This document shows, in pieces, positions 138 through 35,428 of a stretch of 64,000 nt of DNA (position 1 is the stretch's first letter; each line of letters opens with the position of its first letter). Source of the DNA: Leptonemataceae bacterium (GTDB taxonomy: Bacteria; Spirochaetota; Leptospiria; Leptospirales; Leptonemataceae); assembly GCA_965227295.1 (NCBI GenBank), contig OZ245742.1:2464001-2528000 (forward strand), given 5' to 3'. The notes beneath the pieces are model-generated. The model was not told the DNA's origin. It saw only the letters and a list, made by a program, of their open reading frames with translations, and made no database searches. The translations under genes were made by a program, and so were the position numbers.

Positions 138-257
138 GCTTCGTTAAAAATTGCGCGCTGGAAGTTAGCGCACAGGCGTTTGTACGAAACGCGACCGCCG
201 CGGGGGAGAGACCGCGGTGGTCGTGTTTTGTTTCTTGGCGGGCGCTGTCGTCTGCAC

Positions 258-2390
258 CTAATCCTTTTTCTCACCGAAGGTGAAGTTATCGAGGTTGCTC
301 CGAATTTGCGCGCAGGTCGGTTCATTGGTGCCCGGGATGTTGCGTCCGATGATCGGCCCTTCGGGGGTGCCGGTCTGTGTGGGGGAAGATCCTTCCGTAA
401 GGCCGAATTTCGTACGCAGTCCCCGCAGGACACCACGGAGTTCCGAAGTGGTACGTAGATCGTAGCTGGAGGTCGCCCACGGCCCCGGCGCCTGGAACGA
501 AAGGACCTCGCCGCGTTCTTTGCGCCCGGCTTCTCCATGGGGAACCCGGAACCCGAGGAGTTCAAAAAAACCGCGCTTGCCGACATTCAGATTGTTTGCG
601 GCCTGGGTCATGGCCGAGGTCAGGTCCTTGACACTTTCGCCGCCGCGGCCGCCTACGCCGTCAGTCAGTACGATTAATGCGTGATTCTGACGCTCACGAG
701 TATCGCCCTCGGCCGTGGTATTCGCTTCCTTGATGGAATCAAGAATCGCGCTCTTCAGGGGAGTGCCTTCGGTGGCCTCGGCATCCAGGCATTCCAGAAG
801 CCGGGCTGCCAGGCGGGCCCGGGTCAATTCACCGATGTTGGTCACGGACGTATCCGTGTTGAAGCCGGTATCGAAACTAATGAGTCCGCCGGAACTGCCT
901 TGAAAGAAGGCCTTGAAGACAACTCGAATATCCACGCCGGGCGCGAACCTGCGCGGAAGAAGTTCTTCGCGTACGGCCGCCGCGGCGCGCTGATACAATC
1001 GGTTCTCGATCTGCGCGGCATCGGTGCCCGTAGGAATGCGATTCGCCTGGCTCTCGGATTCTTCGCCGGTCTTGACGTCGCGAAACATGCTGCCGCTCAT
1101 ATCGACGAGAACCGTGATTTGATCGATTTGCGTTCGTTCTTCTTTCGGGAACGTGATGGTTTTGATATCGACGCCGGGCACACTATCCGCGCCGCCGGTA
1201 TGTTTGATCACAATGTAATTTGCGCCGCCGGCCCGTGTACTCTCGCCGCCTCGAATGGGTTGCTTCGATGTCGCTTCCGTAATGTTTGCGATGGGGAATG
1301 TGTCGGCCGATGCCGGAGTGTTTCCGGGGGTGACGCCTCGCGCGGCCAGGACGTGATACGTTTCCGACGGATCCTCATCCTGCAAGATAAAGCTCGTGAC
1401 CTGGTTGCCGGTTTGTGCCGGTGGATCGAGCCATATTTCGATCATTCCGAACGAACCGGTCGAGTCGTAGTTGGATGCGTCGGCGAATCGGGACGGCGTG
1501 ATCGTCTCCGTGACGAATTTGCCGCCTTTTTTGTAAGTCCTCTGGGCCCTTACGATTTGCGGTTGTCTGGCGCCCGGGCCGGTCGACACCGCCGGGATCC
1601 GGATGATGCCGGCAGAGGCCGCCGCCGAGGTGCCGTACACCTTGCCCTGCGCATCGAAGGCCTGCACCACGATGCGATCCGTCGGTGCGACGGTGACGTT
1701 CTCGACGCGGCCGCCGGCACCGATTGCATGCGCCGCTTCTGATCCGTCACGGTATTGGTCGTCCTGCTTGAGCACGCGCAGGTTTCCGCGTGCGGCCGGA
1801 GTTCCGCCGATGTGAACCGTGTAACTCTTCGTTTGCAGAGCTGTAGTGCCGCCCGGTTCTTCCTGGCGTTGGATCAACGGCATGCGTGCGACGGTGCTGC
1901 TTTGTTGTATCGTGTGCGCAAGCTCGTGGGCCATCAGGTGTCTGCCGCGGTTTGAGCTCGCATCGTACTGGCCGGCGCCGAAGTAAATGTTGCGGCCGAT
2001 CGTAAACGCGCGTGCGCCGATCCCTTCCGCCGCGCGATGGGCGGCGGCGCCGTCGCGGATGCGCACGTTACTGAAATCGTAGCCCATCCGCGATTCGAAG
2101 AAGTCGCGCTCGTTTCGTTCGAGAGAACGCGAACCGGCCTGGTCGGCCGCGTGGATGTGTGCCTCGGCGTCGGGGCTGATCGGGGAACCACCGGCGCCGG
2201 GTTGTTCCGTGCGCATCAAACGTTTCGATGACTCTCCGTTGACGGCGCGTTCTGCCGCGCGGTCTGCTTCCTGTTCGGTTGCATCACTGGCTTCACTTAC
2301 GCGTAACTTAGCGCGAACGAACTTCGGCGGGCTGGAGTTGCTCGCGGATGCCTTCGGTGCGGTTTGCGGGGCGGCGGTTTTTTGCGACAT
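258..2390 (-). CDS. DUF4157 (eCIS core) domain protein with C-terminal VWA domain
   Basis: [34 protein letters not shown] (DUF4157); VWA MIDAS elements [24 protein letters not shown]. Confidence 0.85.
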
Positions 2391-2413
2391 GTGTTACTCG
2401 ACTCGCGGAGATT

Positions 2414-3163
2414 TCAGCAACCGCACGATCTACGGCCGGTCGGATAACAGCAGCTCGGGCCGCCGCACTTTACGCAGTAGTACAGCTTGTGGACGTAGTC
2501 ATAGTAGGAATTCATACCGCGTCGGGTACAGGAATACGAATCGGCATATCCTTGATACGGGTCACTGTCGACGACGCGACAGGATTGCTGCTTCTCCTTT
2601 TCGTTGTTGGAACCTTTATCATCATCCAACCCGTAAATCGTCTGTCGGTGTATGACGGCGCCGGTGCCCGTGGAAGCGGGGCTGCCGTTTTGCATTGTAT
2701 GGGCGAGTTCGTGGGCCATGAGCCCGCGGTTGCGAGAGGAGTCCGCCTGGTACTCGCCGGCACGTAGAAAGATGTTTTTGCCGATCGTAAAGGCGCGGGC
2801 CTCCAGGCTTTCCGCGGCACGATGGGCTTCGCTTCCGTCGTGGATGCGAACATCACTGAAGTCGTACCCCATGCGTGATTCGTAAAACCGTCGTTCGGTG
2901 CCGCTCAACGCGCGCGAACGGCTGCCGGCCGCGGCGCGAACGCGAGTCTGTGATTCCTCCGTGATCGGACGACCGGCGGAACGGAATCCCGAAGGGCTGC
3001 CGGGACGCCTTCCGTGCATGGCCTGGCTGGCGAGTTGATCAGCTTCTCGCTCGGCAGCATCATTCGCATCACTGACGCGTAACTTTGCGCGAACGAACTT
3101 CGGCAGTTCGGCTGCGGGTTTCGGGCTTTTGCGGCGGACCGCGGATTTTCGGGACATGGACAT
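2414..3163 (-). CDS. DUF4157 domain protein with short 8-Cys C-terminal peptide
   Basis: DUF4157 motifs (MGYDFSDVRIH, ARAFTIG, AHELAHTMQ); about 75-aa tail ending YCVKCGGPSCCYPTGRRSCGC; start may be the second Met (3157). Confidence 0.85.
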   Translation of the reverse strand: MSMSRKSAVRRKSPKPAAELPKFVRAKLRVSDANDAAEREADQLASQAMHGRRPGSPSGFRSAGRPITEESQTRVRAAAGSRSRALSGTERRFYESRMGYDFSDVRIHDGSEAHRAAESLEARAFTIGKNIFLRAGEYQADSSRNRGLMAHELAHTMQNGSPASTGTGAVIHRQTIYGLDDDKGSNNEKEKQQSCRVVDSDPYQGYADSYSCTRRGMNSYYDYVHKLYYCVKCGGPSCCYPTGRRSCGC

Positions 3164-3368
3164 ACCTCCGGAACGTTCTGACTCGATACTATATCCGGAC
3201 CGGGAGGACTGCGAGGACTTCCCCGCGCTGCCGGTGTAAATCGGCGGATTCTGACCGGCGTTTTTTCACATACTTGTGCATCGACAGTGTTTTTTGTAGC
3301 ATTTGCAACGTCCGTCCGCATGACCCCGCCGGCCTTGGTAAAATCTGTGCACGTAAAGTTAGTGCTCC

Positions 3369-4517
3369 TTACTTTATGGGCACGCGTTTGCGCGCCTCCT
3401 CGACGTCCAGCTTCGGTCGTTCCGGTTCCTGATTGCTGACGTCGGCCGGATCCGTGCTGTGGCGATAGCTTTCCCAGGCGCTGAGAACCACGTAGGGGCG
3501 CCCGGGGAAAGTACTACCGATGTACGTCTTAATGTGCCCGCTGATGCTGCGGTTTTTGGCTGAGTTCGGATCGAAGTTATAGTAATCGCGAATCCGTCGT
3601 TCTCCCACAAACGTAAAGTGAAGTCCGTCGAAACTTAGATCCCCACGAAATTCCACCGTGAATTGCCCGAGCGTATTCGGGCTGCGGGCGTAGCCGGGGC
3701 GTTGGGCTTTGATCTTACGCACGGCGGTTTGCCCGGTGCGCCGCTGCTCCTCGACCAGCGGGTCCATGATTGCCACGTATTCCTCGGTCAGGTTTACGTC
3801 TCGAATGATGGGACTTAATCTACGTACGTCGCCTGGCGTCAGAATTAAATCTTCGCCGCTGCCGGCGAGATAGTGACGCAGGAGCTTGCCCCCGATCCGC
3901 GAGAAGAGCAAGGGAAGGCCCTCTCGAATGATCGGATGCGCCTCGCTGCCTTCTTCGGCCTTCTCGTCTTCCACCACGGGTTGCCGCTGTACAAAGGGCG
4001 ACGCCTGTGGGGCCGCTGTTGCGACGCGGTTTTGTTGGATTGTGTGCGTCAGTTCGTGCGCCATGAGATGGCGGCCGTTTTTGGAGTTCGCATTGTACTC
4101 ACCGGATGCGAAGTAGATATTGTTTCCGATCGTGAAGGCCCGCGCACCGATGCTCTTCGCCGCCTGGTTTGCTTCGGAGCTGTGGTGAATGCGAACCTTG
4201 CTGAAATCGTAACCCATGCGCGACTCGTAGAAACCGCGCTCGGCCTGACTCAGCCGGTGCGATCCGCCGGCGTTCGCCCGTCGAACGGATTGTTCGGCTT
4301 GCTCGCTTAAGGGAAGGCCGCTGGAGTCCGGCTGTTCCAGGCGACCGGCGTCGACGGGAGCTTCACCGCGTACGGCCCGTGCGGCCAAGCGATCGGCTTC
4401 TTGCTCGGCGGCATCGCCGCGACCGCCGAGGCGCAGCTTCGCCTGGACGAACTTCGGCGGCGCGGCCTGTGCGAAATTCGATGCGGATCTTCGGCGTGCA
4501 GTGGTCCTTCGAGCCAT
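3369..4517 (-). CDS. DUF4157 domain protein with colicin M-like (lipid II hydrolase) C-terminal domain
   Basis: DUF4157 core, then HYLAGSG...LGQFTVEFRGDL...FTFVGERRIRDYYNFD...NRSISG...GSTFPGRPY, colinear with colicin M catalytic-domain motifs as recalled. Confidence 0.8.
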   Translation of the reverse strand: MARRTTARRRSASNFAQAAPPKFVQAKLRLGGRGDAAEQEADRLAARAVRGEAPVDAGRLEQPDSSGLPLSEQAEQSVRRANAGGSHRLSQAERGFYESRMGYDFSKVRIHHSSEANQAAKSIGARAFTIGNNIYFASGEYNANSKNGRHLMAHELTHTIQQNRVATAAPQASPFVQRQPVVEDEKAEEGSEAHPIIREGLPLLFSRIGGKLLRHYLAGSGEDLILTPGDVRRLSPIIRDVNLTEEYVAIMDPLVEEQRRTGQTAVRKIKAQRPGYARSPNTLGQFTVEFRGDLSFDGLHFTFVGERRIRDYYNFDPNSAKNRSISGHIKTYIGSTFPGRPYVVLSAWESYRHSTDPADVSNQEPERPKLDVEEARKRVPIK

Positions 4518-4730
4518 GGAGCTTTCCTTGTGATGATATCCTCCGATACTGAGCGCGAGCGCACGGAACGCCAGGACTTCCAGGTCCGGCCCGCGACGTA
4601 GGACGGTTTTCGTCGGCCTCGTTGCACATAGTTTTGCATTCGTCGTAACCTCTGCAAGATTTGCAGGGTCCGGGCGTCCGTCCGTATAACCCCGGGCGAC
4701 AGCCGCGGCCCGAGCGGTTACAATCAGCGC

Positions 4731-6275
4731 ATGAAAACGATCCTTTACGTATTGCTCACGATCTTCGGCGGTCTGCTCGCCGCGGCCGGCACAGGTGCCT
4801 GGATGTTATTTCCGCCGGGCCTCGATGTTCCGCCGCGCGAGCGCGTTGTCATTGCCGATGTTACGCTCATCAATCCGGGCCTGGAACGTACGGACGGCGC
4901 GCACGTGCTCATCGCAGACGGGGTGGTGCGTGAAATTCGCAAAGCGCCGCTTAATGTGACGCAGGAAGATGCGCCGCGCACGCGCGTCATTGACGGGCGC
5001 GGCAAGTTTTTGCTGCCCGGCTTAATCGACATGCACGTGCACTTAGCGCCGCGGACCGCGATCGGGAATCCGGAGTTGTTTCAGTTGTTGTTCCTTGCCC
5101 ACGGAGTAACGGCGATCCGGGACATGGGGACGACGGACGGCAACGTCTTTGCGCTGCGCGAGCGTGTAAACGCCGGCGAGATTCCCGGGACGCGGATCTA
5201 TGCGGTGGGGCGTTTGCTCGACGGCACGCCGAAGTCCTGGCCCATTGCGCGCGAGGTCGCCGGCCCGGACGATGCAGCGATTGCCGTTCGCGAGCAGGTG
5301 GAAGCCGGCGCCGACTTCATTAAGGTCTACACGAAGCTGGATGCGCCGTCCCTGCGCGCGATCCACACGGCGGCGCGGGAGATGGATCGCCGGGCGATCG
5401 GCCACATACCCATTGCCGTCCCGTTCGAGCAGTCCGGGGTGAGCGATGCGCAGCATTTCGAAGAAGTGATTCAGTACGACGCGCCCGATGACCGGACCGT
5501 GCGCATTGCGAACAAACAACGCCGCTATCGGAACCTGGGCGAGGCGGAGTATCGTAAGATTGTACAAACATCTCTTGATCAAAACATAGCGCACACGCCG
5601 ACGTTGCTGAACGGTCGTCGTCGGTTGTGGTTGCAGGAATTCGAGCGGGCGCGGCAATCGGAGCCGGCCCTGCTTTTGCCGCGACTCTGGTCGGACGTGG
5701 TGTGGAAACCGTCGGATCGTTACGCGGCCGAGGGCGCGGCGAACGAGATGAATGCCGGGGACGATCATGCACACGACGAAGAGTGGTGGTATCGTTTCGC
5801 GTGTGATATGACCGGCCGCCTGCATCGCGAAGGCGTGCGCATTCACGCGGGCACGGATATTCTGATGCCCTTCGTGGTGCCCGGGGAGAGTCTGATCGGT
5901 GAGATCGAAGAGTTGCATCGTTGTGGTCTTTCTCGCGAAGACGCCCTGGCCGCGGCGACGACGTGGGCGGGGGAGTTTCTGGCAAGCGCCGGCAGTCACG
6001 GCGGCGTGAGCGGGGAGGGCGCGACGTGTTACGGCTCGGTTCCGCCGGGGCGTGTGGTCGTGGGCGCGCCGGCGGATTTGGTGTTGTTTGCTAAGTCACC
6101 GCTGGATGATCTTAGTGCACTTCGGGAACGGGACGTTGTGATTGCCGGTGGGCGCGTGTATGAGCAGGATGTGCTGGATGGGATGGTGGAGCGGTATCGC
6201 GCGCATTTTCGCGGGTGGTGGTATGATGGGATTATGACGGGGGTGGCCGCGTGGTTGAAGGGTGGGTATCAGTGA
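4731..6275 (+). CDS. amidohydrolase family protein (metal-dependent), N-terminal membrane anchor
   Basis: LLPGLIDMHVH, GADFIKVY, HAGTD and GAPADLV motifs. Confidence 0.9.
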   Translation: MKTILYVLLTIFGGLLAAAGTGAWMLFPPGLDVPPRERVVIADVTLINPGLERTDGAHVLIADGVVREIRKAPLNVTQEDAPRTRVIDGRGKFLLPGLIDMHVHLAPRTAIGNPELFQLLFLAHGVTAIRDMGTTDGNVFALRERVNAGEIPGTRIYAVGRLLDGTPKSWPIAREVAGPDDAAIAVREQVEAGADFIKVYTKLDAPSLRAIHTAAREMDRRAIGHIPIAVPFEQSGVSDAQHFEEVIQYDAPDDRTVRIANKQRRYRNLGEAEYRKIVQTSLDQNIAHTPTLLNGRRRLWLQEFERARQSEPALLLPRLWSDVVWKPSDRYAAEGAANEMNAGDDHAHDEEWWYRFACDMTGRLHREGVRIHAGTDILMPFVVPGESLIGEIEELHRCGLSREDALAAATTWAGEFLASAGSHGGVSGEGATCYGSVPPGRVVVGAPADLVLFAKSPLDDLSALRERDVVIAGGRVYEQDVLDGMVERYRAHFRGWWYDGIMTGVAAWLKGGYQ

Positions 6276-6277
6276 GA

Positions 6278-6996
6278 TTAGAACTCGCCGCGTCGGAGCT
6301 CGGCGATGCGCGGTCCAAACAGGCGGAATTGCGGTGGTCGCATCTGCCAGTACAGCATCGTGTAGTAGTCCTCGGCGATCTTGCATTGCTGCTCGCGATT
6401 GAAGTCTCGGAAACGTTTCGTCTCCAGTTCGCTCCAATCGTAGGCATACGAGTTACCGATGGTTTGCAGCATGAACTTGCGGCCGACCGCTTCGTACTGC
6501 GCCACGTGGACGAGCTCGTGGATCATCATGGCCATGGCCAGATTACCCGGCGCCGTATGGATCGGATCGTTGTAGTGAATTGTGTACCCGGTGACCACGC
6601 CGGCTCTGGCTGTCTTGCTTCGTAAATACTGAAGCGGAGCCTGCCAGCTTTTTTTGAAGAAGTATCCGAGTTCGGGGAGGATGCCGTTGGGATTGATGAT
6701 AACCTTTGTAATCAATGCTGTTGCCGAGCACCCTGCGGGCTTCGGCGATTTCGACGGATCTCAGGCCGCGCTGTTCTTCGGTGGCCGGGTTTTCGTTTTG
6801 CCGCTCCGGCTCCGTCTGACGGCGTACCTGCGGCGTGATCGTTTTTGCCTGTTGTATATGAACCAGTTCGTGAGCGAGGAACCGTCGGCCTGCGCTTGTG
6901 CCGGGTTGATACTTGCCGGCTCCGAAGAAGACGTCTTTACCGAGACTCGCCTGCGGCTGTAGACCGATGGAGGCCCTTTGTTTCGTCCCTGGTCAT
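6278..6996 (-). pseudogene. decayed DUF4157 protein with a second HExxH domain
   Basis: RBS+ATG at 6996 stops after 19 codons; another frame gives the DUF4157 tail LGKDVFFGAGKYQPGTSAGRRFLAHELVHIQQ; frameshift near 6705 into KVIINP...MIHELVHVAQYE...EQQ; the N-terminal half of DUF4157 is missing. Confidence 0.75.
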
Positions 6997-7014
6997 GTAA
7001 AAGCTCCCCTTATC

Positions 7015-8169
7015 TGTACTAGCCAACACCCGATCTGACACTCCTGCCTGTCAGGTATAATCAGGCCGATGCCTGATGCTGTTTATCCAGCATCTTTTCA
7101 CGCGCCACAGCGACGGAATCAGCGAACGTTTGCGCCGGCGTCTTGCCGAAGCAGTACTTGCCGCTGTGCGTCCGTTCCTGGTTGTACTCCAGCATCCATT
7201 CATCCAGACCGGCTTGCAGCTCCTCGATGCTTGAGTAGAGTTTCTTGCGAAACGCCACGGCGTAGAATTCTTCCTGGATCGTCTTGTGGAAACGTTCGCA
7301 GACGCCGTTCGTTTGCGGATGCCGCGTTTTGGTTTTCGTATGGTCGATGTCCTCCATCACGAGATACAACTCGTACTCGTGATTCTCCGGCTTGCCGCAG
7401 TACTCCGTGCCGCGATCGGTCAACACCCGCAGCAGCGGGATGTTGTAATCCGCGTAGAAAGGAAGCACACGATCGTTTAGCAAATCGGCCGCCGTCAGCG
7501 CGTTCTTGCGATCGTAAAGTTTCGCAAAACCGACCTTAGCGTACGTATCGATGAACGTTTGCTGGTAGATCCGCCCCACGCCCTTGATATTGCCAACGTA
7601 ATACGTGTCCTGCGAGCCCAGATAGCCGGGGTGATGCGATTCGATCTCGCCGTGCGCTTCTTTGTCCTGACGGCCTTTCTCAAGCGCCGCGACCTGTGCC
7701 TCGGTGAGAATGATCCCCTCTTGCGCGACGCGGGCCTCCAGCGCCTTCAGACGCTTCTTGAACGTCTCCATGTCGTGCCGCAACCAGACCTGACGCACGC
7801 CGCCCGGTGAGATTGAAACGCCGCGCTTGCGCAGCTCATTCGACACACGCAGTTGACCGTGCGCCGGCTTCTCGAACGTGAACTCGATCACCGCGGCTTC
7901 CACATCCGCCGGAATCCGATTCTTCTTGTTCGGTTTGCGCCGCGTGAGATCCTTGAGAGCTTCTTCTCCGCCGGTCTCGTACGCCCGCTCGTAACGGTAA
8001 AACGTATCGCGTGATACGCCCATCACCCGGCAAGCCTCTGCAACGTTACCCAGAGTACGGGCCAGCTTCAAGATACCCACCCGGTGCTTTACGATTTTTT
8101 GTTCTGCTGTCATCTCTTTCCTCCGATACAAATTATATCGGAGTGTCAGATGGAATCTTGACTATCTCA
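7015..8169 (-). mobile_element. IS481 family insertion sequence, complete
   Basis: 30-bp imperfect terminal inverted repeats (7015-7044 TGTACTAGCCAACACCCGATCTGACACTCC; 8140-8169; 22/30 match); 7-bp direct repeat CCTTATC at 7008-7014 and 8170-8176. Confidence 0.92.
7061..8113 (-). CDS. IS481 family transposase
   Basis: N-terminal HTH (GNVAEACRVMGVSRDTFYRY), DDE core (SQDT, LTDRGTEY, PQTNGVCERFH); ATG at 8113 behind GGAGG. Confidence 0.95.
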   Translation of the reverse strand: MTAEQKIVKHRVGILKLARTLGNVAEACRVMGVSRDTFYRYERAYETGGEEALKDLTRRKPNKKNRIPADVEAAVIEFTFEKPAHGQLRVSNELRKRGVSISPGGVRQVWLRHDMETFKKRLKALEARVAQEGIILTEAQVAALEKGRQDKEAHGEIESHHPGYLGSQDTYYVGNIKGVGRIYQQTFIDTYAKVGFAKLYDRKNALTAADLLNDRVLPFYADYNIPLLRVLTDRGTEYCGKPENHEYELYLVMEDIDHTKTKTRHPQTNGVCERFHKTIQEEFYAVAFRKKLYSSIEELQAGLDEWMLEYNQERTHSGKYCFGKTPAQTFADSVAVAREKMLDKQHQASA

Positions 8170-8171
8170 CC

Positions 8172-10133
8172 TTATCCGAAGCGTCTCGGTTTGTATGCGC
8201 TCGCCGCCCATTGATACATCTTAGAGAGTTCCCCGTCAGTTGTGAAATATCCAAATTCAACATCCGCATCATTTGTAAGTCCGATTTTTTCCCACCGCTT
8301 TTCAACCGCCCAACCCGGTTTTCGATATTCCCGAATTCGTGTCTCGCTGAAGTATCCTGATTGTCCTTGAGTGACCGTTCTGTATTGGTACTTAACATCT
8401 GGATTGAGCATCCAATTCCTTACCCATAGGTCTCTCTCTAGGGATACGGCAAGGGCCATCAAGTTGATCACGGGAGGGGTCTTAAGTAGTTTCGAGTCTG
8501 CAATGATTGCCTTCTCGAGCTTACCAAGGTCGCTATCAAGCTTGTTCACTTGCTCAAAATTGTTTGTGGCCTTGAGGAGTTGTTTCCACGGCTTGGTTAA
8601 ATTTCTCTGGCCGGAGATTCTCAGCGCAGTCTGGTGTTGGTGACTGGCAAAACGATGCACGAGCGTGACGGCATCAAGAATTTCGAGCAATGGTTTTTCT
8701 ATCTGATAAACTTCAATGAGGTTTTGATATACACTTGGCAATGCCCCAATCGCTTGTTCTACTTTCATTGCTTCAGGCTCATTCTTCTTGTGTGAAAAAT
8801 GATCAATAAGTTGACTACTGGTTTCACTGAGAATGGCGGCACCCGTGGGTACTACGATATCACTCAGGACAGAATTAAAAAGTTTGGCGGCAGGTGCCGT
8901 TTTCATTAGAATCTCTCTCGCTGCTACGGCAGCAGTGCTTCCAACGAATCCCCAAACGCCAGCAGAAACTACCTGTAGGATCGCAGCATAGAAAGCGTCG
9001 TTTATCTTCTGTTCCTCATAATATGCTTGGATTCCGTCTTTAAAATTCTCATAGGCTATGTGATAGGCGGTAGTATGTAACAACCAATGCGCCCTCCATC
9101 TCGTAGCGCCATTTAAGGCCAACTGATATAGATCTGTGGCGCGACCCATTATTCCAAGCATTTGATCTCGGTACATTGATAGGCCCTCGGGAGCACCTCC
9201 GGACCTTGATTCATTGAAGATCGCCGTTGATGGTTTGCGGCGTATTTTCCTTCCCACCCCACTCGCACCCTGCTGCACGGTATGCGTCAACTCATGCGCC
9301 ATCAACCGCCTGCCGTCGCTCGATCCCGGCGAGTATTCGTTAGAACCAAAGAACACATCCTTACCCACGGTAAACGCCCGAGCATTCAGCGACCGAGAAA
9401 TCTGCTGCGCTTCCGGCCCGGTATGCACACGCACGCCGCTGAAATCATAACCCATCCGCGGCTCAAAGAACGCCCGCTCCGACTCCGGCAACGGTGAACC
9501 ACCACGCGCCCGCACCGAGTTGATCGAAGACTCTACCGAAGAAGAGACCGGCCCGCTCCCATCACCACCATCCCTCTGAATTGCCCCACCGCAACTCACG
9601 CAACGAGACATCATAACGTCCTCATCTTCCCCGCCAATCTCGCGCTGCACACGCGACATCATCACATCTTCTTCTTCCCCGACCGCCTCCCGCTGCACCC
9701 TCATCATCTGCATGCTTTCTTCCTCACACGCCGCGCACTTGCGTTGGAGTCGCTTTAACTGCATCTCATCATCATCTTGCGCGCCACCCATGCGTGAGAT
9801 CTTCACCGGCGAGCGGGACATCATTACGCCCTCATCGTCTTCGCCGGAGACGCCGCCGGGAGCCGGCATGGTCATCACCTGTTCGGCCACACGATCGGCC
9901 TCGTCCTCGAGGGGATCGTTCGCGGCGCCGACTTCCATGGAGCGCTGAATCGGCAGACGACCCGCGGCAGCCATCTCGGCGACGGCGGCGTTGCCGAGGG
10001 CGCGCTGCAAACGCTGGATGTGGCCGAGATGTTCCAGCGGGGCCTGCTCCGGAGCGCGTTGCTGCGTGGCGTTCTGGCGACGGACGGTGGTGGACGTATT
10101 CGATTGCGAAGTTTGCGTGCGTTGTTCGGACAT
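8172..10133 (-). CDS. DUF4157 domain protein with acidic N-terminal repeats and lower-GC helical C-terminal domain
   Basis: LQRALGNAAV leader, repeats EDVMMSRVQRE, DUF4157 (MGYDFSGVRVH..AHELTHTVQQ); C-terminal ~350 aa in visibly AT-richer DNA. Confidence 0.85.
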   Translation of the reverse strand: MSEQRTQTSQSNTSTTVRRQNATQQRAPEQAPLEHLGHIQRLQRALGNAAVAEMAAAGRLPIQRSMEVGAANDPLEDEADRVAEQVMTMPAPGGVSGEDDEGVMMSRSPVKISRMGGAQDDDEMQLKRLQRKCAACEEESMQMMRVQREAVGEEEDVMMSRVQREIGGEDEDVMMSRCVSCGGAIQRDGGDGSGPVSSSVESSINSVRARGGSPLPESERAFFEPRMGYDFSGVRVHTGPEAQQISRSLNARAFTVGKDVFFGSNEYSPGSSDGRRLMAHELTHTVQQGASGVGRKIRRKPSTAIFNESRSGGAPEGLSMYRDQMLGIMGRATDLYQLALNGATRWRAHWLLHTTAYHIAYENFKDGIQAYYEEQKINDAFYAAILQVVSAGVWGFVGSTAAVAAREILMKTAPAAKLFNSVLSDIVVPTGAAILSETSSQLIDHFSHKKNEPEAMKVEQAIGALPSVYQNLIEVYQIEKPLLEILDAVTLVHRFASHQHQTALRISGQRNLTKPWKQLLKATNNFEQVNKLDSDLGKLEKAIIADSKLLKTPPVINLMALAVSLERDLWVRNWMLNPDVKYQYRTVTQGQSGYFSETRIREYRKPGWAVEKRWEKIGLTNDADVEFGYFTTDGELSKMYQWAASAYKPRRFG

Positions 10134-10378: not shown

Positions 10379-12838
10379 TTAGAGAACGTCGACGTCCGGT
10401 CGCACTTTGCGAAACGCGCGGATTTCCGCGCCGGAAAACGATCCGTGGGCGCGCACGAGATAGAGGTACGGAAGATCCACGAGAGAAAGCAGGCCCGTTA
10501 ACCCAGGGTTACTGAAGATTACCAGCTCTTCCAGGTTCGAGCAGTTCGCCAGCGCCGACACGTCTTTGGCCTGGTTTTCCTGCAGGAACAACTGTCGGAT
10601 CTCCGTCAGTTTTCCGAGCGGTGCGATGTCTTCGATTTCATTGCCGATCAACTCCAGGCGTCTTAGACCGGTGAACCTGGCCAGGGGGGAAACGTCGCCA
10701 ATGCCGTTCCGGGAGAGATCCAGTTGTCGTAGCGTCGGCAGGTCGGGAAGGCCGGAGAGGTCGGCAAGCCGGCATTCATCGAGACCGAGGTAGGCGATTA
10801 CCGGAAGATCGCCCAACGGCTCCAGGTTTTTCAGGGGATTCCGGTGCAGGTTCAATGAGCGCAGGCAGCGCAGAGTGGAAAGATCGGGCAACTCCGCGAT
10901 GCCGTTTTCCGAAACGGAGACGTAGTCCAGACGTTCCAGGCGCGTAAGCGGGGTGATGTCGCTGAGTTCTTTCTGACCGAGAGATAGATGGTTTTCTTTG
11001 CGCAATTCGAAAAAACCTTCCGCCCCGGGGATATTTCCGTCTTCGTCTTCTTCGGTGAGTTCGTCCACCTCATCCGCCAGTGCCTCGCGCCAGACTTCGG
11101 GCAGGCTCTCCCACCAGGCGCGCCAGTGTTTGACTTCGTCCCCGGTCAGCGCGACCGTAAACGGACGGCTCTCCTGCCAGAGCTGCACGCCCTCCGGGGT
11201 GACGGCTTCGTCTCGCCAGTGGGCGTCCAGGTCCTGCAATAACGGAAGCGAACGCAGTTCGAGCGCGGCGCGAATGCTCGTTTTTTCCAGGGGATTACCG
11301 AAGCAGGATATTTCTTTCAACAAACGATTGTTTTTCAGGCAATTCAGGTCCGTGAGTTCGTTGTTGTAGAGTGAAAGCTCGACGAGTGCCGGGAGATCGG
11401 ACAGGGGTTCTACCGACTGGAGCTTGTTTCCGTTCAGGCGAAGTTTGCGTAGATTTTTCAGGCCGGCCAGGGCGGAGACATCCGTCAGGCCGCAGTCGCC
11501 GAGGTCCAGTTTCTCCAGCCGAACCAGGTCTCTCAGAGGCGAAAGATCGTTGATGGGATTCCCGTCCAGCTTGAGTTCCACCAGTCGCTTTAGTTCGGCC
11601 AGAGGGCCGAGGTCTTCGAGCATGTTCCCTTCGAGGGATAACTCGCGCAGGCGCGTAAACCGGGTGAGAAACGAAACGTCCTCCACGTCCAGATGATCCA
11701 GCTTGAGTTCCGTCGCTCGAATGAGAGCGGCCAGGTCTTCCGGCTGCATTGCGTCCGGTTCTCTGTCGAAAACTTCGCCGAGTTTTTTGCGAACCTGTTC
11801 GTTGCCGATAGAAGCCCACCACGTTGTGAGATCTTTTTGCGTCGCTTCGTCCGGTACCAGGACCGGTGGTTCCAGCCAGGCGATGATTTCTTCCGCGCGT
11901 TCCCGGGCTCCGGCGCCTTCGATTTTGCGCAGTTCTTCGAGGGCTTCCGTGACACGCTTCGGTTCCTTCGCGCCGAAACGCGTGACGATGAATCCGAAGA
12001 ACTTCGTCGCCTGGACCATTTCGTCCAGATGGAGATATGCAAGGCCGCGGTACAGAAACGAATAAAACGAGGAGTAATCATCAAAGAGCATGTACATCGA
12101 GCGGGCTTTCGCTTCGGCGTACTCGGCCGCGACCTTCCACTCTTTGCGACTCAGGTAGATTGAGATTATATTCAGGGCGGCGGACTTTGTGCCTTCCTCG
12201 ACGGCCATTTCGAAGAGCGACATGGCCCGGTCTGGGTCGCCGAGATTCTTGTAACACAGCGCGAGTATGTTGCGCAGGTTCCCCGGCAGTCCCCGGTATG
12301 AGTCCAGGATGTCGGCCCGAAATGAACCGGAAGCAGCGAGGCTTTGTTCCACCAGGTCCCGGGCCTCCATGTACTTTTCTTCTTCGAAAAGTGCGAGAGC
12401 TTTCTCCCGGATCTCACTGAGTAGTTCCGCCTGTGTCTTTCCTCCGGGCGGCAACAGAGAGTTCAGAAACTCTTCGAGGGAGTCTGAGTGAGGTTCAAAA
12501 CCGCTTTCGTAGTCGAAGAACAGGACGGGAACGCGGTCCTGGCTCAGGTCGGCGGCCAGGTAGAAACTTCCATCCAATTCCAGAAGGTCGGCCAGAGGCC
12601 ACAGAGTGCTCTTCGATTCCGTGAATGATCCGGCATATTCTTGTTTATCGTCCAGGTCCTCGCGATTCGCGAACGTAATCGGACTGCGCACGTCGCTTCC
12701 GAAATAGGGGAGGTTCGTCACCTGAAAGCCCTCGTACTTTTTCCATTCACTGGAACGAAAGAACTCTCGGAGCCGTTCCGGGAATACTACGCCGGATTCT
12801 TCCTCCAGCGCGGCGGGGTCTATGGGCGTGTGGCTCAT
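10379..12838 (-). CDS. SMI1/KNR4 (SUKH)-TPR-leucine-rich repeat protein
   Basis: Start MSHTPID (12838); SUKH-like ALEEESGVVFPERLREF...PVLFFDYE..SDSLEEFL; TPR-like helices; two blocks of internalin-type LRRs (LxxLxLxxNxIxDLxPL). Confidence 0.8.
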   Translation of the reverse strand: MSHTPIDPAALEEESGVVFPERLREFFRSSEWKKYEGFQVTNLPYFGSDVRSPITFANREDLDDKQEYAGSFTESKSTLWPLADLLELDGSFYLAADLSQDRVPVLFFDYESGFEPHSDSLEEFLNSLLPPGGKTQAELLSEIREKALALFEEEKYMEARDLVEQSLAASGSFRADILDSYRGLPGNLRNILALCYKNLGDPDRAMSLFEMAVEEGTKSAALNIISIYLSRKEWKVAAEYAEAKARSMYMLFDDYSSFYSFLYRGLAYLHLDEMVQATKFFGFIVTRFGAKEPKRVTEALEELRKIEGAGARERAEEIIAWLEPPVLVPDEATQKDLTTWWASIGNEQVRKKLGEVFDREPDAMQPEDLAALIRATELKLDHLDVEDVSFLTRFTRLRELSLEGNMLEDLGPLAELKRLVELKLDGNPINDLSPLRDLVRLEKLDLGDCGLTDVSALAGLKNLRKLRLNGNKLQSVEPLSDLPALVELSLYNNELTDLNCLKNNRLLKEISCFGNPLEKTSIRAALELRSLPLLQDLDAHWRDEAVTPEGVQLWQESRPFTVALTGDEVKHWRAWWESLPEVWREALADEVDELTEEDEDGNIPGAEGFFELRKENHLSLGQKELSDITPLTRLERLDYVSVSENGIAELPDLSTLRCLRSLNLHRNPLKNLEPLGDLPVIAYLGLDECRLADLSGLPDLPTLRQLDLSRNGIGDVSPLARFTGLRRLELIGNEIEDIAPLGKLTEIRQLFLQENQAKDVSALANCSNLEELVIFSNPGLTGLLSLVDLPYLYLVRAHGSFSGAEIRAFRKVRPDVDVL

Positions 12839-13008
12839 GGGCAGAACACCTTTTACTATAGTATGTGGGTGTACTCTGCGCGGGCGCTTTCGGAGAGCAA
12901 GGCTGAATCTCAGCAGCGGGCCCGTGGGCTCCCGTTTCCGCGAGTGTGAAAGGAAACGGAGGCCGCAAAGAGGAGAGATCGGGGGGCCGGCCACCCGCCG
13001 TTTTTCCC

Positions 13009-13035
13009 TAAAGTCCGCCGCGATAGTACCGATCA
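13009..13035 (+). promoter_or_regulatory. sigma28 (FliA)-like promoter, distal
   Basis: TAAA-N15-ACCGATCA versus consensus TAAA-N15-GCCGATAA. Confidence 0.5.
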
Positions 13036-13191
13036 TAACACCACAGAGCCGGCGAGATCACCGGCCAACGCGAATGAGATGATCTAATGAAACCACAGCA
13101 TCCACCGCCGTTGCGGTCGGAAGCCGAAAAGCAACCCGGCCGGGATCCGCACTTTTTTTGTGTGGCCGGCTTTTTTTTGCTCAAGTCCTGT

Positions 13192-13442: not shown

Positions 13443-14288
13443 ATGATCATCAACAATAACCTGCCCGCGATCAACTCCCATCGCGTGCTGAAGTTCCAGC
13501 ATGAGGAAGTCTCCAAGAACATGGAGAAACTTTCTTCAGGCATGCGGATCAACCGTGCCGGTGACGATGCCTCCGGTCTGGCTGTATCTGAAAAGATGCG
13601 CTCGCAGATTAACGGTCTGCGCCAGGCGGAACGCAACGCCCAGGACGGCATGAGCATGATTCAAACGGCCGAGGGTTACATCGGCTCGCTGAACGACGTG
13701 CTCCAACGCATCCGCGTGCTTTCGGTGCAAGCGGCGAACGGGGTTTACACCGCCAACGATCGGCAAATGATTCAGGTGGAAGTCTCCCAACTCGTCGACG
13801 AAGTCGATCGCATCGCTTCGCAAGCGGAGTTCAACAAACAGGCTCTGCTGCTCGGCGATTTCGCCCGCGGCTCTCGGGCCGCTTCGATGTGGTTTCACAT
13901 CGGCGCGAACCAGCACCAGCGTGAACGCGTGTTCATCGGTACCATGACGTCTCAGGCTCTCAGCCTGCGCCGGGTGGACAATACCATGATCTCGCTTTCG
14001 ACGATGGCTCTGGCGAACGACACCATCGGTGTCATCGACGAAGCGCTGCACCGTGTGAACAAAGAACGCGCCAATCTCGGTGCCTACTACAACCGTCTCG
14101 AACATGCCGCTCAGGGCCTTATGACCGCGTATGAAAATACGCAGGCCTCCGAGTCTCGCATTCGCGATACGGACATGGCCGAGGAAAGCGTGGCGTTCAC
14201 GAAGAACCAGATCCTTGTTCAAAGCGGCACGGCGATGCTCGCCCAGGCGAACATTCGTCCGCAGTCGGTTCTCCAGCTCCTGCGTTAA
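13443..14288 (+). CDS. flaB: flagellar filament core protein FlaB
   Basis: [50 protein letters not shown]; 281 aa, spirochete-type. Confidence 0.97.
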
Positions 14289-14581: not shown

Positions 14582-15427
14582 ATGATTATCAATCACAACA
14601 TGAGCGCGGTGAATGCTCACCGGGTTCTAAAGTTCAATCAGCGCGAAGTGGACAGCTCCATGGCGAAGTTGTCCTCCGGCATGCGTATCAACACAGCCGG
14701 AGACGACCCGTCAGGTCTGGCCGTTTCGGAAAAAATGCGCACGCAGGTGAACGGCCTGCGCCAGGCGGAACGTAACACCCAGGATGGTCTGTCCATGATT
14801 CAGACCACCGAGGGTTTTCTGGCGCAGACTTCGGATATCATTCAACGCATCCGCGTTTTAGCGGTACAGGCGTCGAACGGTATCTATTCGGCCGAAGACC
14901 GGCAGTTGATACAGACGGAAGTTTCGCAACTCGTCGACGAAGTCGATCGGGTGGCGTCTCAGGCCGAGTTCAACAAGTATCAACTGTTGTTGGGTCAGTT
15001 CAGCCGGAGTTCTCAGGCGGGATCCATGTGGTTTCACATGGGACCGAACGCGAATCAGCGGGAACGGGTGTACATCGGAACGATGACCTCGGCCGCGTTG
15101 AAGCTGCGTCCCGCCGCCGATCGCATTGTGAGCGTATCGTCGCCCGGACAGGCGAACGAAACGATCGGTCGTGCCGACGAGGCGTTGCAGATCATTATGA
15201 AGCAACGCGCAGATCTCGGTGGCTACGCCAATCGTATGGAGCATGCGTCTCGGGGATTAATGAACGCCTATGAGAACGTTATGGCTTCGGAGTCGCGTAT
15301 TCGGGATACCGATATGGCCGAGGAGATGGTGCATCTAACGACGCATCAGATTCTGTCGCAGACGAGCATTGCGATGCTCGCTCAGGCAGGAGTTCGTCCG
15401 CAGGGGGTTCTGCACTTATTGCGATGA
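14582..15427 (+). CDS. flaB: flagellar filament core protein FlaB (paralog)
   Basis: [31 protein letters not shown]; 281 aa. Confidence 0.97.
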
Positions 15428-33250: not shown

Positions 33251-35422
33251 ATGCTCGCGTTTCGCATTGTGTTCGTAATCGCCGCCTGTCTACCGTCGGC
33301 TCTCGCCGCGCAAGCATACCTCGACGCCCGCCTGGGCAACGCGGCGCTGAACGGCCAGCTCGATCGCCTGGATCGACTCATCAAAGCCGGCGCAAACGTG
33401 AACGCTAAGATCCCGGCGCGTTTTCATACCGGCGAAACCCCGTTGCATCTCGCCGTGCGGACGAATCAGCGGCAGGTCGTCGCGCGCTTGATGGCCGCCG
33501 GTGCGAACGTGGACGCCCGCGACGATCGCGGCGAGACGCCGCTCATAACCGCGGTGTACTTCGAACACACGGAACTGGCGCGCGAACTGCTGCGCGAGCA
33601 CGGCGCCGATCCGAACGTTGCCATGCTGAACGGGCTCCGCCCGCTGCACGTCGCCGCCGACCGCGGCTTGAATGAACTCGCGCGACTGTTGCTGGAGCAC
33701 GATGCGGCCGTCGATGCGCGGACGGGGAGCGGCATTACGCCGTTGATGGTGGCGGCGAAACGGCATGCGGCCATCGTCCGATTGTTGCTCGATGCCGGCG
33801 CGAATCCGCGGGCGACCACGAAGCAGGGGACGACGCCGTTGATGTACGCGGCGCACGCGGCCGCGACGAACATCGTGCGGATGTTGCTCGCCGCCGGGGC
33901 GGACGTGCAAACGAAACGCGGTGACGGCAGCGACGCATTCGATTTTGTGTTATCGCCGCACTATATCTCTTTTGATTTGCCCGGCAGCATCGAACTCTTC
34001 GCGCAGCGCGGCGTGGATGTGTGTCGTCGCGGCGGCAAAGAACAAACTCCGTCGATCATGTACCGGGGATTGCGCCGGGACATCGCGGCTCTGGAAACGA
34101 TCTTGCGGCACGGCTGCGACCCGCGCGCCGTGGATGCGAACGGCCGGTCGATTTATGATCTGCATCTGACGAACGAGGAGCAAACGCTCATCGATGCGCA
34201 TACCTCCTCATCGGAGGAAGAGCCGCAGGAAGAAGAGATACGAATCGAAGAACTGCGGCGGGAAGATCGGCCTGAAGAGCGCCGCACCTTTGCGGAACAG
34301 GCCCGGGAAACCGCATGCACGCCGGCGTTGTACGAGTACCTGAACAACGGCGGCGATCCCAATGCCGGCCCGGACTACTCTCCACCATTGATCCAATACG
34401 TCTTGCAGTGTTCCGATGCACTGCAACGCGTGCGTACCCTGGTGAATGCCGGCGCGCGTTCGCGCTGGAACAGCACGTCTCTGTTCGAAGCCGCCATCAG
34501 CAACGATGTGCTCGATGATGAAATGTTTGCGCTGCTTCGCAAGGCCGGCGCCGTTCCGCACGAGGCCGACGGAACCAACGCGCTGTGTTTCGCCGTTCGC
34601 ACCGGACGATTGCGCGCGCTGCGGACCCTGCTGCGTCATGCCGCGCCGGCGCGTTGTCATGATTTCGCGTTTACGTTGATTCCCGCCGATCTTTATGCGC
34701 GCCGGAACGCACCGAAAGAACAGCTTGCGGCAATCATCGCCGCGTTGCCGGTTTCGACGGAAGCTCGCCTGGAAGATGCGCTTGTCGCCGGTAAAAGCGA
34801 AGCCGCGGCCAGCATTCTACGCGAGCATCCCGCTCTGAATACGAGCGTCGTCACGGTGCAGCTCGCCCTGAGAAACGGCGACGAAGCCCTGGCCGATCTC
34901 TGCCTCGATCGCCTGGTCGGTGTGACGCATCCGACGCTGGCGGCTTTCTTCAAGGCTCAGGCTCAGGCTCTGGTCGATGTCCCGGACGACGGCGCGTTCG
35001 TGCAGTACCTGTTTCGCCACGGAGTGGATGTCCGCGCTGTCGATTACCCCGGTCGGCAATCGCATCTCATTACGACTGCCGGAAACCGGCCGCGTATGAC
35101 CGCGGCGTTGTTGCATCTACCCGTGGACTGGTCGCCGCAAGATCTGGATGGTGCCCTGTTCGAGGCTGTCTATGGTGATCAGTACGAGACCGCGGTGTTG
35201 CTGGTGGAGGCCGGGGCGAACGTTCGTCGAGAGAACAGCGGAACTTTGTTGCGGCTGGCCCGTAAGAATCCTCGCATGCATCGTTTCTTGCGCGCCCAGG
35301 GATTGTACGTTCGGTCCGGTGATGAAGCCCTGGAAGTGCCGCTGGAGGTTGAGCCCCCCGGCGGCAGGCGCGTGGAGGAAATCCAGAAAAGGCTGGAACC
35401 GCTGAACCCCGCGAAGCCCTGA
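33251..35422 (+). CDS. secreted ankyrin repeat protein
   Basis: Signal peptide; repeated G.TPLH.A..G....V..LL..GA.V.A ankyrin units. Confidence 0.9.
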   Translation: MLAFRIVFVIAACLPSALAAQAYLDARLGNAALNGQLDRLDRLIKAGANVNAKIPARFHTGETPLHLAVRTNQRQVVARLMAAGANVDARDDRGETPLITAVYFEHTELARELLREHGADPNVAMLNGLRPLHVAADRGLNELARLLLEHDAAVDARTGSGITPLMVAAKRHAAIVRLLLDAGANPRATTKQGTTPLMYAAHAAATNIVRMLLAAGADVQTKRGDGSDAFDFVLSPHYISFDLPGSIELFAQRGVDVCRRGGKEQTPSIMYRGLRRDIAALETILRHGCDPRAVDANGRSIYDLHLTNEEQTLIDAHTSSSEEEPQEEEIRIEELRREDRPEERRTFAEQARETACTPALYEYLNNGGDPNAGPDYSPPLIQYVLQCSDALQRVRTLVNAGARSRWNSTSLFEAAISNDVLDDEMFALLRKAGAVPHEADGTNALCFAVRTGRLRALRTLLRHAAPARCHDFAFTLIPADLYARRNAPKEQLAAIIAALPVSTEARLEDALVAGKSEAAASILREHPALNTSVVTVQLALRNGDEALADLCLDRLVGVTHPTLAAFFKAQAQALVDVPDDGAFVQYLFRHGVDVRAVDYPGRQSHLITTAGNRPRMTAALLHLPVDWSPQDLDGALFEAVYGDQYETAVLLVEAGANVRRENSGTLLRLARKNPRMHRFLRAQGLYVRSGDEALEVPLEVEPPGGRRVEEIQKRLEPLNPAKP

Positions 35423-35428
35423 AATCCA

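Follow-up and report, generated by a model that had tools for sequence, protein, structure and literature searches.

Toxins of the PVC-metallopeptidase type join an unvarying N-terminal peptidase to C-terminal toxin regions that are varied by recombination, are predicted to be released by autoproteolysis, and are encoded in several copies per genome (Zhang 2012, Biol Direct 7:18, PMC3482391); in the sections of that study drawn on here, immunity genes are often lacking and the peptidase itself is also found as a C-terminal toxin. The peptidase domain, DUF4157 (PF13699, now named eCIS_core), is a marker of toxins associated with extracellular contractile injection systems (eCIS) and, in the portions of two surveys used here, immunity genes are missing for many of these toxins and some genomes carry up to 18 predicted ones (Geller 2021, PMC8213781; Danov 2024, PMC11297309). 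In AlgoCIS, the tandem DUF4157 proteins Cgo1 and Cgo2 fill the lumen of the tube (Xu 2022, PMC8894135), and loading is described as needing the disordered N-terminal domain (bioRxiv 10.64898/2026.05.27.728243). Here we describe an array of five DUF4157 genes in Leptonemataceae bacterium, a spirochete with a genome assembled as one 5.94-Mb contig (OZ245742.1, assembly GCA_965227295.1). The window analysed is a 64,000-nt stretch of this contig (positions 2,464,001–2,528,000), and the array lies at window positions 258–10133. We consider it probable that this strain-variable island consists of polymorphic toxin genes of the PVC-metallopeptidase (DUF4157/eCIS_core) type, most likely ammunition for phage-tail-like eCIS particles encoded at distant sites of the same genome; loading, injection, toxicity and proteolytic release are steps that we infer.

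Four intact genes and one decayed gene, all on the minus strand, carry the domain, as a sequence-only reading of the same DNA had stated. The PF13699 profile (curated cut-off 22 bits) matches the products of gene A (258–2390, 710 aa) with 98 bits (E 3.5e-28), gene B (2414–3163, 249 aa) with 97.5 bits (E 5.2e-28), gene C (3369–4517, 382 aa) with 99.2 bits (E 1.5e-28) and gene E (8172–10133, 653 aa) with 111.3 bits (E 2.6e-32), E-values in the range of 1e-28 to 1e-32, and the match to the decayed gene D (6278 to about 6962) is partial (44.5 bits, E 8.9e-11, profile positions 36–76, window 6843–6962). Each has the zinc-binding helix HExxH, reading HELAH in A and B, HELTH in C and E and HELVH in D, and in each it is followed by xxQ. 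The previously reported sequence elements are all present: a leader of the form E.EAD..A..(A/V) in A, B, C and E, the segment PKFV(R/Q)AKLR in A, B and C, and, 10–20 residues past HExxH, a short motif (IQRQ, IHRQ, VQRQ, VRRQ and IRRK in A to E, respectively) referred to below as the QR motif.

Protein A has a disordered N-terminus, the leader helix, the DUF4157 core (aa 90–166) and IQRQ (173–176), then a beta-rich middle part and a probable VWA domain, while B consists of the leader, the core (aa 86–161), IHRQ (171–174) and a 75-aa tail with eight cysteines. In C, the leader helix (aa 36–49) and the core are followed by VQRQ within a beta-strand (175–180), a disordered linker (183–198) and a colicin M (ColM)-like domain (about 200–378). 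Protein E carries the leader at aa 72–83, a CAAC pair, acidic MMSR/VQRE repeats, the core (214–290), IRRK (297–300) and a 353-aa C-terminal domain (CTD). Gene D retains the 3' half of the core (HELVH, VRRQ), where one frame reads LGKDVFFGAGKYQPGTSAGRRFLAHELVHIQQ...VRRQ, and a frameshift near 6700 leads into the open reading frame (ORF) 6278–6715, with a second zincin (HELVH..NREQQ). A hydrophobic N-terminal segment is absent from A, B, C and E (maximum KD19 <0.8 over the first 60 aa), which agrees with the claim that none has a signal peptide.

With the toxins described by Zhang (2012), as far as they are covered here, the array shares the presence of several genes per genome, the frequent lack of adjacent immunity genes and a second C-terminal peptidase (in D), and it differs from them in lying far from any injection-system operon. 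Like the eCIS-associated toxins of the Geller and Danov surveys, its products have an N-terminal DUF4157 domain and a predicted C-terminal toxin and occur in an eCIS-positive genome. Going by published description, Cgo1 and Cgo2 of AlgoCIS show the same order of disordered N-terminal domain, DUF4157 and differing CTD in tandem genes, and Cgo1 has a second HExxH in its CTD, as does D, but the two are encoded within the eCIS operon and have been shown to lie in the tube lumen. The architecture is therefore already in print as the PVC-metallopeptidase or eCIS-associated toxin model, and what is particular here is the spirochete host, the off-site location, the ColM-type cargo and the clean example of a cargo boundary. 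The flagellar genes fit the placement among spirochetes: the genome has four matches to FlaA (PF04620), which is typical of spirochetes, and the window encodes two flagellins of the FlaB type. Spirochaetes are not in the phylum list for the domain in the available part of Zhang 2012 (PMC3482391), and the string 'spirochaet' is absent from the main texts of Geller 2021 (PMC8213781) and of a 2025 metagenome survey.

The similarity among the array proteins stops at a sharp position. The cores of A, B and C are 62–63% identical, and identity collapses right after HTIQQ, with the QR motif alone remaining. The same position emerges from a comparison with a congener, genome G001, where the protein encoded at the same site is homologous to E over aa 2–300 (E 1e-73), the homology stopping exactly at GVGRKIRRK in one and GVGKGLQRQ in the other, and the CTDs are unrelated. 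In the gene for E, the GC content at third codon positions (GC3) is 0.697 before codon 300 and 0.456 after it (genome GC 0.598), a break that A, B and C do not have. Given the end of homology and the drop in GC3, both at the QR motif, the cargo of E looks recently imported with the motif as the junction, and the comparison between E and the G001 protein provides the strongest support for the motif as a recombination boundary, as had been suggested. Outside the array, 16 of 52 foreign proteins have a strict hydrophobic-[QHR]-R-[KQ] motif at a distance of 8–43 aa past HExxH, versus 0 of 316 control windows of 35 aa taken from their CTDs. On these alignments, the QR motif is the boundary between modules. 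The DNA repeats between A, B and C are only 68–83% identical, so no trace of recent recombination between these paralogues is readable from them.

The island is strain-variable and is flanked by flaG (ending at 137) on one side and by two flaB genes (13443–14288 and 14582–15427) on the other, downstream of flhF and flhG. The flaG–flaB interval measures 13.3 kb here, versus about 9.4 kb in G001 and about 2.3 kb in another congener, genome G002. In G001, it contains a GNAT gene, one DUF4157 gene (519 aa, with a different cargo), an M35 aspzincin gene and one large ORF, and the G002 interval has no PF13699 match. Array content thus differs between congeners, the opposite of a cargo order conserved across relatives. 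Encoded in the G001 island is a 614-aa protein (L032:6018–7862, minus strand) in which an Aspzincin_M35 domain (HEGMH) is separated from a second region, with HEISH, by a segment containing VIRRQP, a QR-like motif beside a zincin of another kind; the protein has no PF13699 match. More widely, PF13699 was found in 4 of 30 other genomes, namely in two congeners, with 9 and 5 copies, and in two members of the same family that belong to other genera, with 16 and 3, and in none of 12 genomes of the sister family.

Three complete-looking eCIS-type loci are present in the genome. The first, eCIS-1 (about 1.572–1.594 Mb), has genes for an AAA-WHD ATPase, sheath, two T4_gp19 tubes, Phage_base_V, PAAR, gp25, Baseplate_J, Tail_P2_I and a Collar fibre, with no adjacent DUF4157 gene. 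The second, eCIS-2 (about 2.794–2.818 Mb), encodes an ATPase, Pvc16_N, sheath, two tubes, CIS_tube, gp25, Baseplate_J and Tail_P2_I, with three DUF4157 genes interleaved and two more, one intact and one broken, nearby. In eCIS-3 (about 5.706–5.727 Mb) there are sheath, tube, ATPase, CIS_tube, gp25 and a Baseplate_J with WD40, together with one DUF4157 gene specifying a 246-aa protein that ends right after HExxH. The injection system that the sequence-only reading had placed elsewhere is therefore present, the loci having sheath, tube, gp25, Baseplate_J, an AAA-WHD ATPase and Pvc16_N or PAAR. The array is off-site but is not, as had been proposed, an orphan in this genome, and since two of the three loci contain DUF4157 genes, the alternative of an unknown export route is not needed.

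Genome-wide, there are 17 PF13699 matches, of which 14 are in intact ORFs and three are partial or stop-bearing. Homology between protein E and the core protein of eCIS-3 starts at the leader and spans the entire core (aa 62–289 of E, E 2e-36), and both have the CAAC pair and acidic repeats. In their cores, A, B, C and E share 45–53% identity with the eCIS-3 core, compared with 30–39% for the four DUF4157 genes located within or beside eCIS-2, and this difference weakly favours eCIS-3 or eCIS-1 as the candidate partner of the array. Two further observations concern these genes. The Baseplate_J protein of eCIS-3 (1316 aa; L030:3682–7632, minus strand) has a WD40 beta-propeller inserted at aa ~340–550, which is unusual for a baseplate wedge. 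A Lon-protease-like open frame has, at its 3' end, a weak, partial PF13699 match (36 bits; G000:C1:1012282–1012449, minus strand) with one internal TAG, probably a remnant.

The cargo of C is a predicted enzyme, a ColM-like lipid II phosphatase by profile and fold, in agreement with the first description of it. A single-sequence search of the PDB retrieved colicin M only (E ~0.35, aligned on the catalytic segment), and in the Atlas the domain falls to a Colicin_M cluster (score 0.93). A word-index homolog search, limited to proteins of near length, returned the query itself alone, while a HMMER scan of 1.84 billion representatives found 65 remote relatives, and these, with the three longest left out (62 sequences; 63 members including C), were aligned as a family. 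The family profile matched colicin M in the PDB with an E-value of 2.4e-12, as well as pectocin M2, PaeM, syringacin M and pectocin M1, down to 1.9e-7. In a Foldseek search with the model of C, the top 13 matches listed were all of the ColM class with a probability of 1.00 (PaeM, E 2.4e-6), and structure comparison with VIA gave Z 8.0 to pectocin M1 and Z 6.5, 6.3 and 6.0 to further ColM-class proteins. An Asp and an Arg, at the positions of ColM D226 and R236, are shared by all members (63/63) and are D311 and R323 in C, which also keeps the aromatic residue of the catalytic segment (Y313). We take this segment to be D-x-Y-D-x5-H-R in ColM, with D229 and H235 as presumably important residues. 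Among the 63 family members, 15 have eCIS_core, 13 match Colicin_M, 2 WXG100, 2 DUF637, 1 RHS and 1 PPE, a distribution that marks the domain as a probable polymorphic-toxin cassette common to several delivery systems.

The C-terminal part of C thus resembles ColM, PaeM, syringacin M and pectocins M1 and M2 in profile, in fold and in keeping the aromatic residue together with the invariant Asp and Arg, but its delivery part is a DUF4157 module, where the bacteriocins of this class have a TonB-dependent receptor-binding and translocation domain. Also unlike ColM, no Cmi-like immunity gene follows C: the 205-nt gap between C and B holds, on the coding strand, only ORFs of 28 and 39 aa. The picture of a tandem array without interleaved immunity genes stands as far as this gap goes, while the tandem itself is interrupted by an amidohydrolase gene on the opposite strand and by an insertion sequence (IS), so that the array is not strictly contiguous. 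The terms 'Colicin M' and 'ColM' were not found in the available text of Zhang 2012, and a literature search on colicin M together with contractile injection systems gave no paper visibly on an eCIS cargo, judged by the entries returned.

For the other cargoes the assignments are graded. Protein A probably ends in a VWA domain. The residues typical of a metal ion-dependent adhesion site (MIDAS; DxSxS...T...D) are present as DMSGS, TPL and TDG, but every match is sub-threshold: Pfam VWA scores 15.2 bits against a cut-off of 23.8 (E 0.027), the best 5 of 30 Atlas matches are all VWA clusters at 0.81–0.83, and the alignment to the TRAP VWA domain has an E-value of about 1. The whole CTD has a homolog with 33% identity at another G001 locus, likewise fused to DUF4157; in the alignment of three sequences, TPL and TDG occur throughout and DMSGS in A and the G001 homolog, the third sequence, a fragment from genome G008, not reaching DMSGS. 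A phmmer search of the PDB with this CTD found nothing, and its AlphaFold2 (AF2) model, built from the 3-sequence alignment, is unusable with a mean predicted local distance difference test (pLDDT) score of 40.3. In B, the eight cysteines counted in the reported peptide cargo all fall within the last 55 residues. Relatives of the B tail and the E CTD were not found in genomes G000, G001, G002, G008 and G009; with the E CTD, phmmer against the PDB returned chance-level rows only, and the word-index search among near-length proteins gave the query itself alone.

The second HExxH domain of D could be placed further, as a predicted zincin that resembles both the VgrG2b effector domain and DUF4157 itself. 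In the PDB it is matched best by the effector domain of VgrG2b (6h56, E 0.44), with HExxH, YAY and NxEQQ as the aligned elements, and hhalign against a DUF4157 profile gave a colinear alignment of 64 columns (probability 39%, E 3.2e-4). D keeps HExxH and the Glu of NxEQQ, which aligns with E983, the third zinc ligand of VgrG2b (6H56; PMC6899460), but VgrG2b differs in being delivered by a type VI secretion system as a spike extension.

The constant module offers a possible clue to the function of the leader. In the AF2 model of full-length C (mean pLDDT 84.9, 107-row alignment), the leader at aa 36–49 is a confident helix (pLDDT 86–95), with an invariant E-x-[ED]-A-D, after a segment, aa 1–25, with pLDDT of about 50, and the QR motif is a confident beta-strand (175–180) leading into the disordered linker, with no helix after the HExxH helix. 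Structure comparison of the DUF4157 core with VIA gave VgrG2b as the best match (Z 6.5 to the domain, root-mean-square deviation 3.5, 98 aligned), followed by HtpX (Z 4.0) and the abylysin zymogen (Z 3.5). VgrG2b is a gluzincin in which E983 belongs to a helix that comes later and is not part of the ~80-residue Pfam core (Wood 2019, PMC6899460, in the part used here); in A, B, C and E, going by the model of C, there is no helix past that of HExxH at the place of this Glu helix. From the placement of this helix and the model of C, it can be proposed, as a tentative and rather doubtful hypothesis, that the leader is not a targeting signal but a permuted gluzincin Glu helix that gives the third zinc ligand via E-x-x-x-D (E38 and D42 in C). 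The QR strand would then be a site of cis-docking, in or near the cleft, or of self-cleavage, the constant module would be a complete self-processing protease, and the cut point would coincide with the boundary of cassette exchange.

Searches for the leader in other proteins bear on this proposal. Among the 55 foreign proteins retrieved with the N-terminal domain and core of C (HExxH in 54), E.[ED]AD..[AS] occurs before HExxH in 25 and after it in 4. With a relaxed pattern, applied to 79 foreign and own-genome proteins, the leader lies only before HExxH in 40, only after in 8, on both sides in none and on neither in 31. Leader-type helices lie about 26–31 aa after the first His of HExxH, the canonical position for a Glu helix, or at least 99 aa before it, the permuted position, which is where they are in A, B, C and E. 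The strict form, in which the leader is a universal zinc-ligand helix, is weakened by the 31 of 79 proteins without the pattern, which include a Bacteroidota-type subgroup that has KKEEEK repeats and no leader helix, although some of the 31 are misses of the pattern. Leader and QR motif, by their distribution in these sequences, are family-wide features and not specific to the array.

Under the reading that we favour, the array proteins would follow one plan, in which a short N-terminus that is disordered and a zincin-like module that stays constant are followed by a short boundary strand (hydrophobic-Q/H/R-R-K/Q) and an exchangeable C-terminal cargo. They would be synthesized in the cytoplasm without a Sec signal. 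One of the three eCIS would probably take them into its tube, with the disordered N-terminus serving for recognition and the AAA+ ATPase assisting, and they would then be injected into other cells. The cargo of C, as predicted from profile and model, would be antibacterial, a colicin-M-like enzyme that cuts the cell-wall precursor lipid II, and new cargoes would be gained by recombination at the boundary. A number of points weigh against this scheme. The VWA domain of A is no obvious toxin, and C has N314 and N322 where ColM has D229 and H235; at the former position the family has D in 52/63 members and N in 10/63, and the second, that of the His, shows no conservation. From its end at 2,474,133, the array is about 320 kb away from the nearest eCIS locus (eCIS-2, starting at 2,793,954), while 88% of known eCIS-associated toxins are located within ten genes of the operon according to the relevant part of Danov 2024 (PMC11297309); the array falls outside that range of about ten genes, within which 88%, not all, of the known toxins are found. 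From what is available on AlgoCIS, loading is independent of DUF4157 and the toxicity of Cgo1 is independent of its HExxH (PMC8894135; bioRxiv 10.64898/2026.05.27.728243).

The distance of about 320 kb and the dispensability of DUF4157 for AlgoCIS loading would also suit proteins that act without any contractile particle, either released by lysis or serving as a protease or regulator inside the producer, with the eCIS loci using their own adjacent DUF4157 genes, and the VWA-type and Cys-rich tails, which are not classical intracellular toxins, point the same way. We regard this as unlikely, because PF13699 occurs only in multi-copy relatives (4 of the 30 other genomes) and, in the own genome, inside eCIS operons, because E and the core protein of eCIS-3 are paralogues, and because the ColM-like cargo of C would need to reach the envelope of another cell. 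Less likely still is that the island is a decaying, non-functional graveyard of once eCIS-linked genes that has been eroded by the IS. Gene D, truncated and frameshifted beside the IS, is what such decay would look like, as are two further PF13699 matches with stop codons elsewhere in the genome, and G002 is without the island; but A, B, C and E are uninterrupted ORFs of 249–710 aa, their modules have host-like GC3, HExxH is intact, and the motif residues are conserved. Delivery by the distant eCIS particles of the same genome thus remains the reading that we prefer.

The IS (7020–8164, minus strand, 1145 bp) separates the stop codon of E from what is left of D. Inverted repeats of 25 nt delimit it (7020–7044 and 8140–8164), and it has a transposase ORF (7061–8131) with matches to rve_3 and HTH_29. 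The 5' half of D is missing where the gene adjoins the IS. There are six copies in the genome, the other five being 94.3–94.5% identical to the island copy, which is thus about 5.5% divergent from them. Two sequencing runs from one study (X1 and X2) cover the stretch, and in these the depth of the IS contig is about 5x that of its flanks; a third run (X3) gave no coverage at any position, the flanks among them, and is uninformative. The amidohydrolase gene (4731–6275, plus strand; Amidohydro_1, E 1.8e-13) codes for a protein with a hydrophobic N-terminus (KD19 1.9), and was not seen in the G001 version of the island. A terminator-like hairpin (152–174, minus strand; 8 pairs, then a T run) is found 84 nt downstream of the stop codon of gene A. 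Across the region, terminator-like sites (17, versus 13.4 ± 3.6 in shuffles) and promoter-like sites (5, versus 3.7 ± 2.5) are not above chance.

Directly upstream of E in the variable island, 10379–13036 (minus strand) specifies an 885-aa protein with tetratricopeptide repeats and with leucine-rich repeats in two blocks. SUKH domains are known to serve as immunity modules, and this gene was considered as a SUKH immunity gene, but the N-terminal SMI1_KNR4 match scores 22.8 bits, below the cut-off of 25.4, and the gene lies upstream, not downstream, of E; this reading was rejected. Elsewhere in the window (33251–37180, plus strand), a gene for a 723-aa ankyrin-repeat protein is directly followed by one for a 583-aa protein with a C-terminal FHA domain, so that a eukaryote-like repeat protein is encoded in a free-standing pair.

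These results add a spirochete lineage, in which there are 14 intact carrier genes and three injection loci, to the known range of eCIS/DUF4157 toxin arsenals. They also indicate that a ColM-type, predicted lipid II-degrading domain is a recurrent cargo of DUF4157 proteins, as seen in 15 of 63 relatives, and the same-site genes of two congeners provide a clean natural case of cargo exchange exactly at the QR boundary. If the proposal of a permuted Glu helix with self-cleavage is true, it would give a testable mechanism for the long-unexplained DUF4157 domain, and would mark where a heterologous cargo can be grafted.

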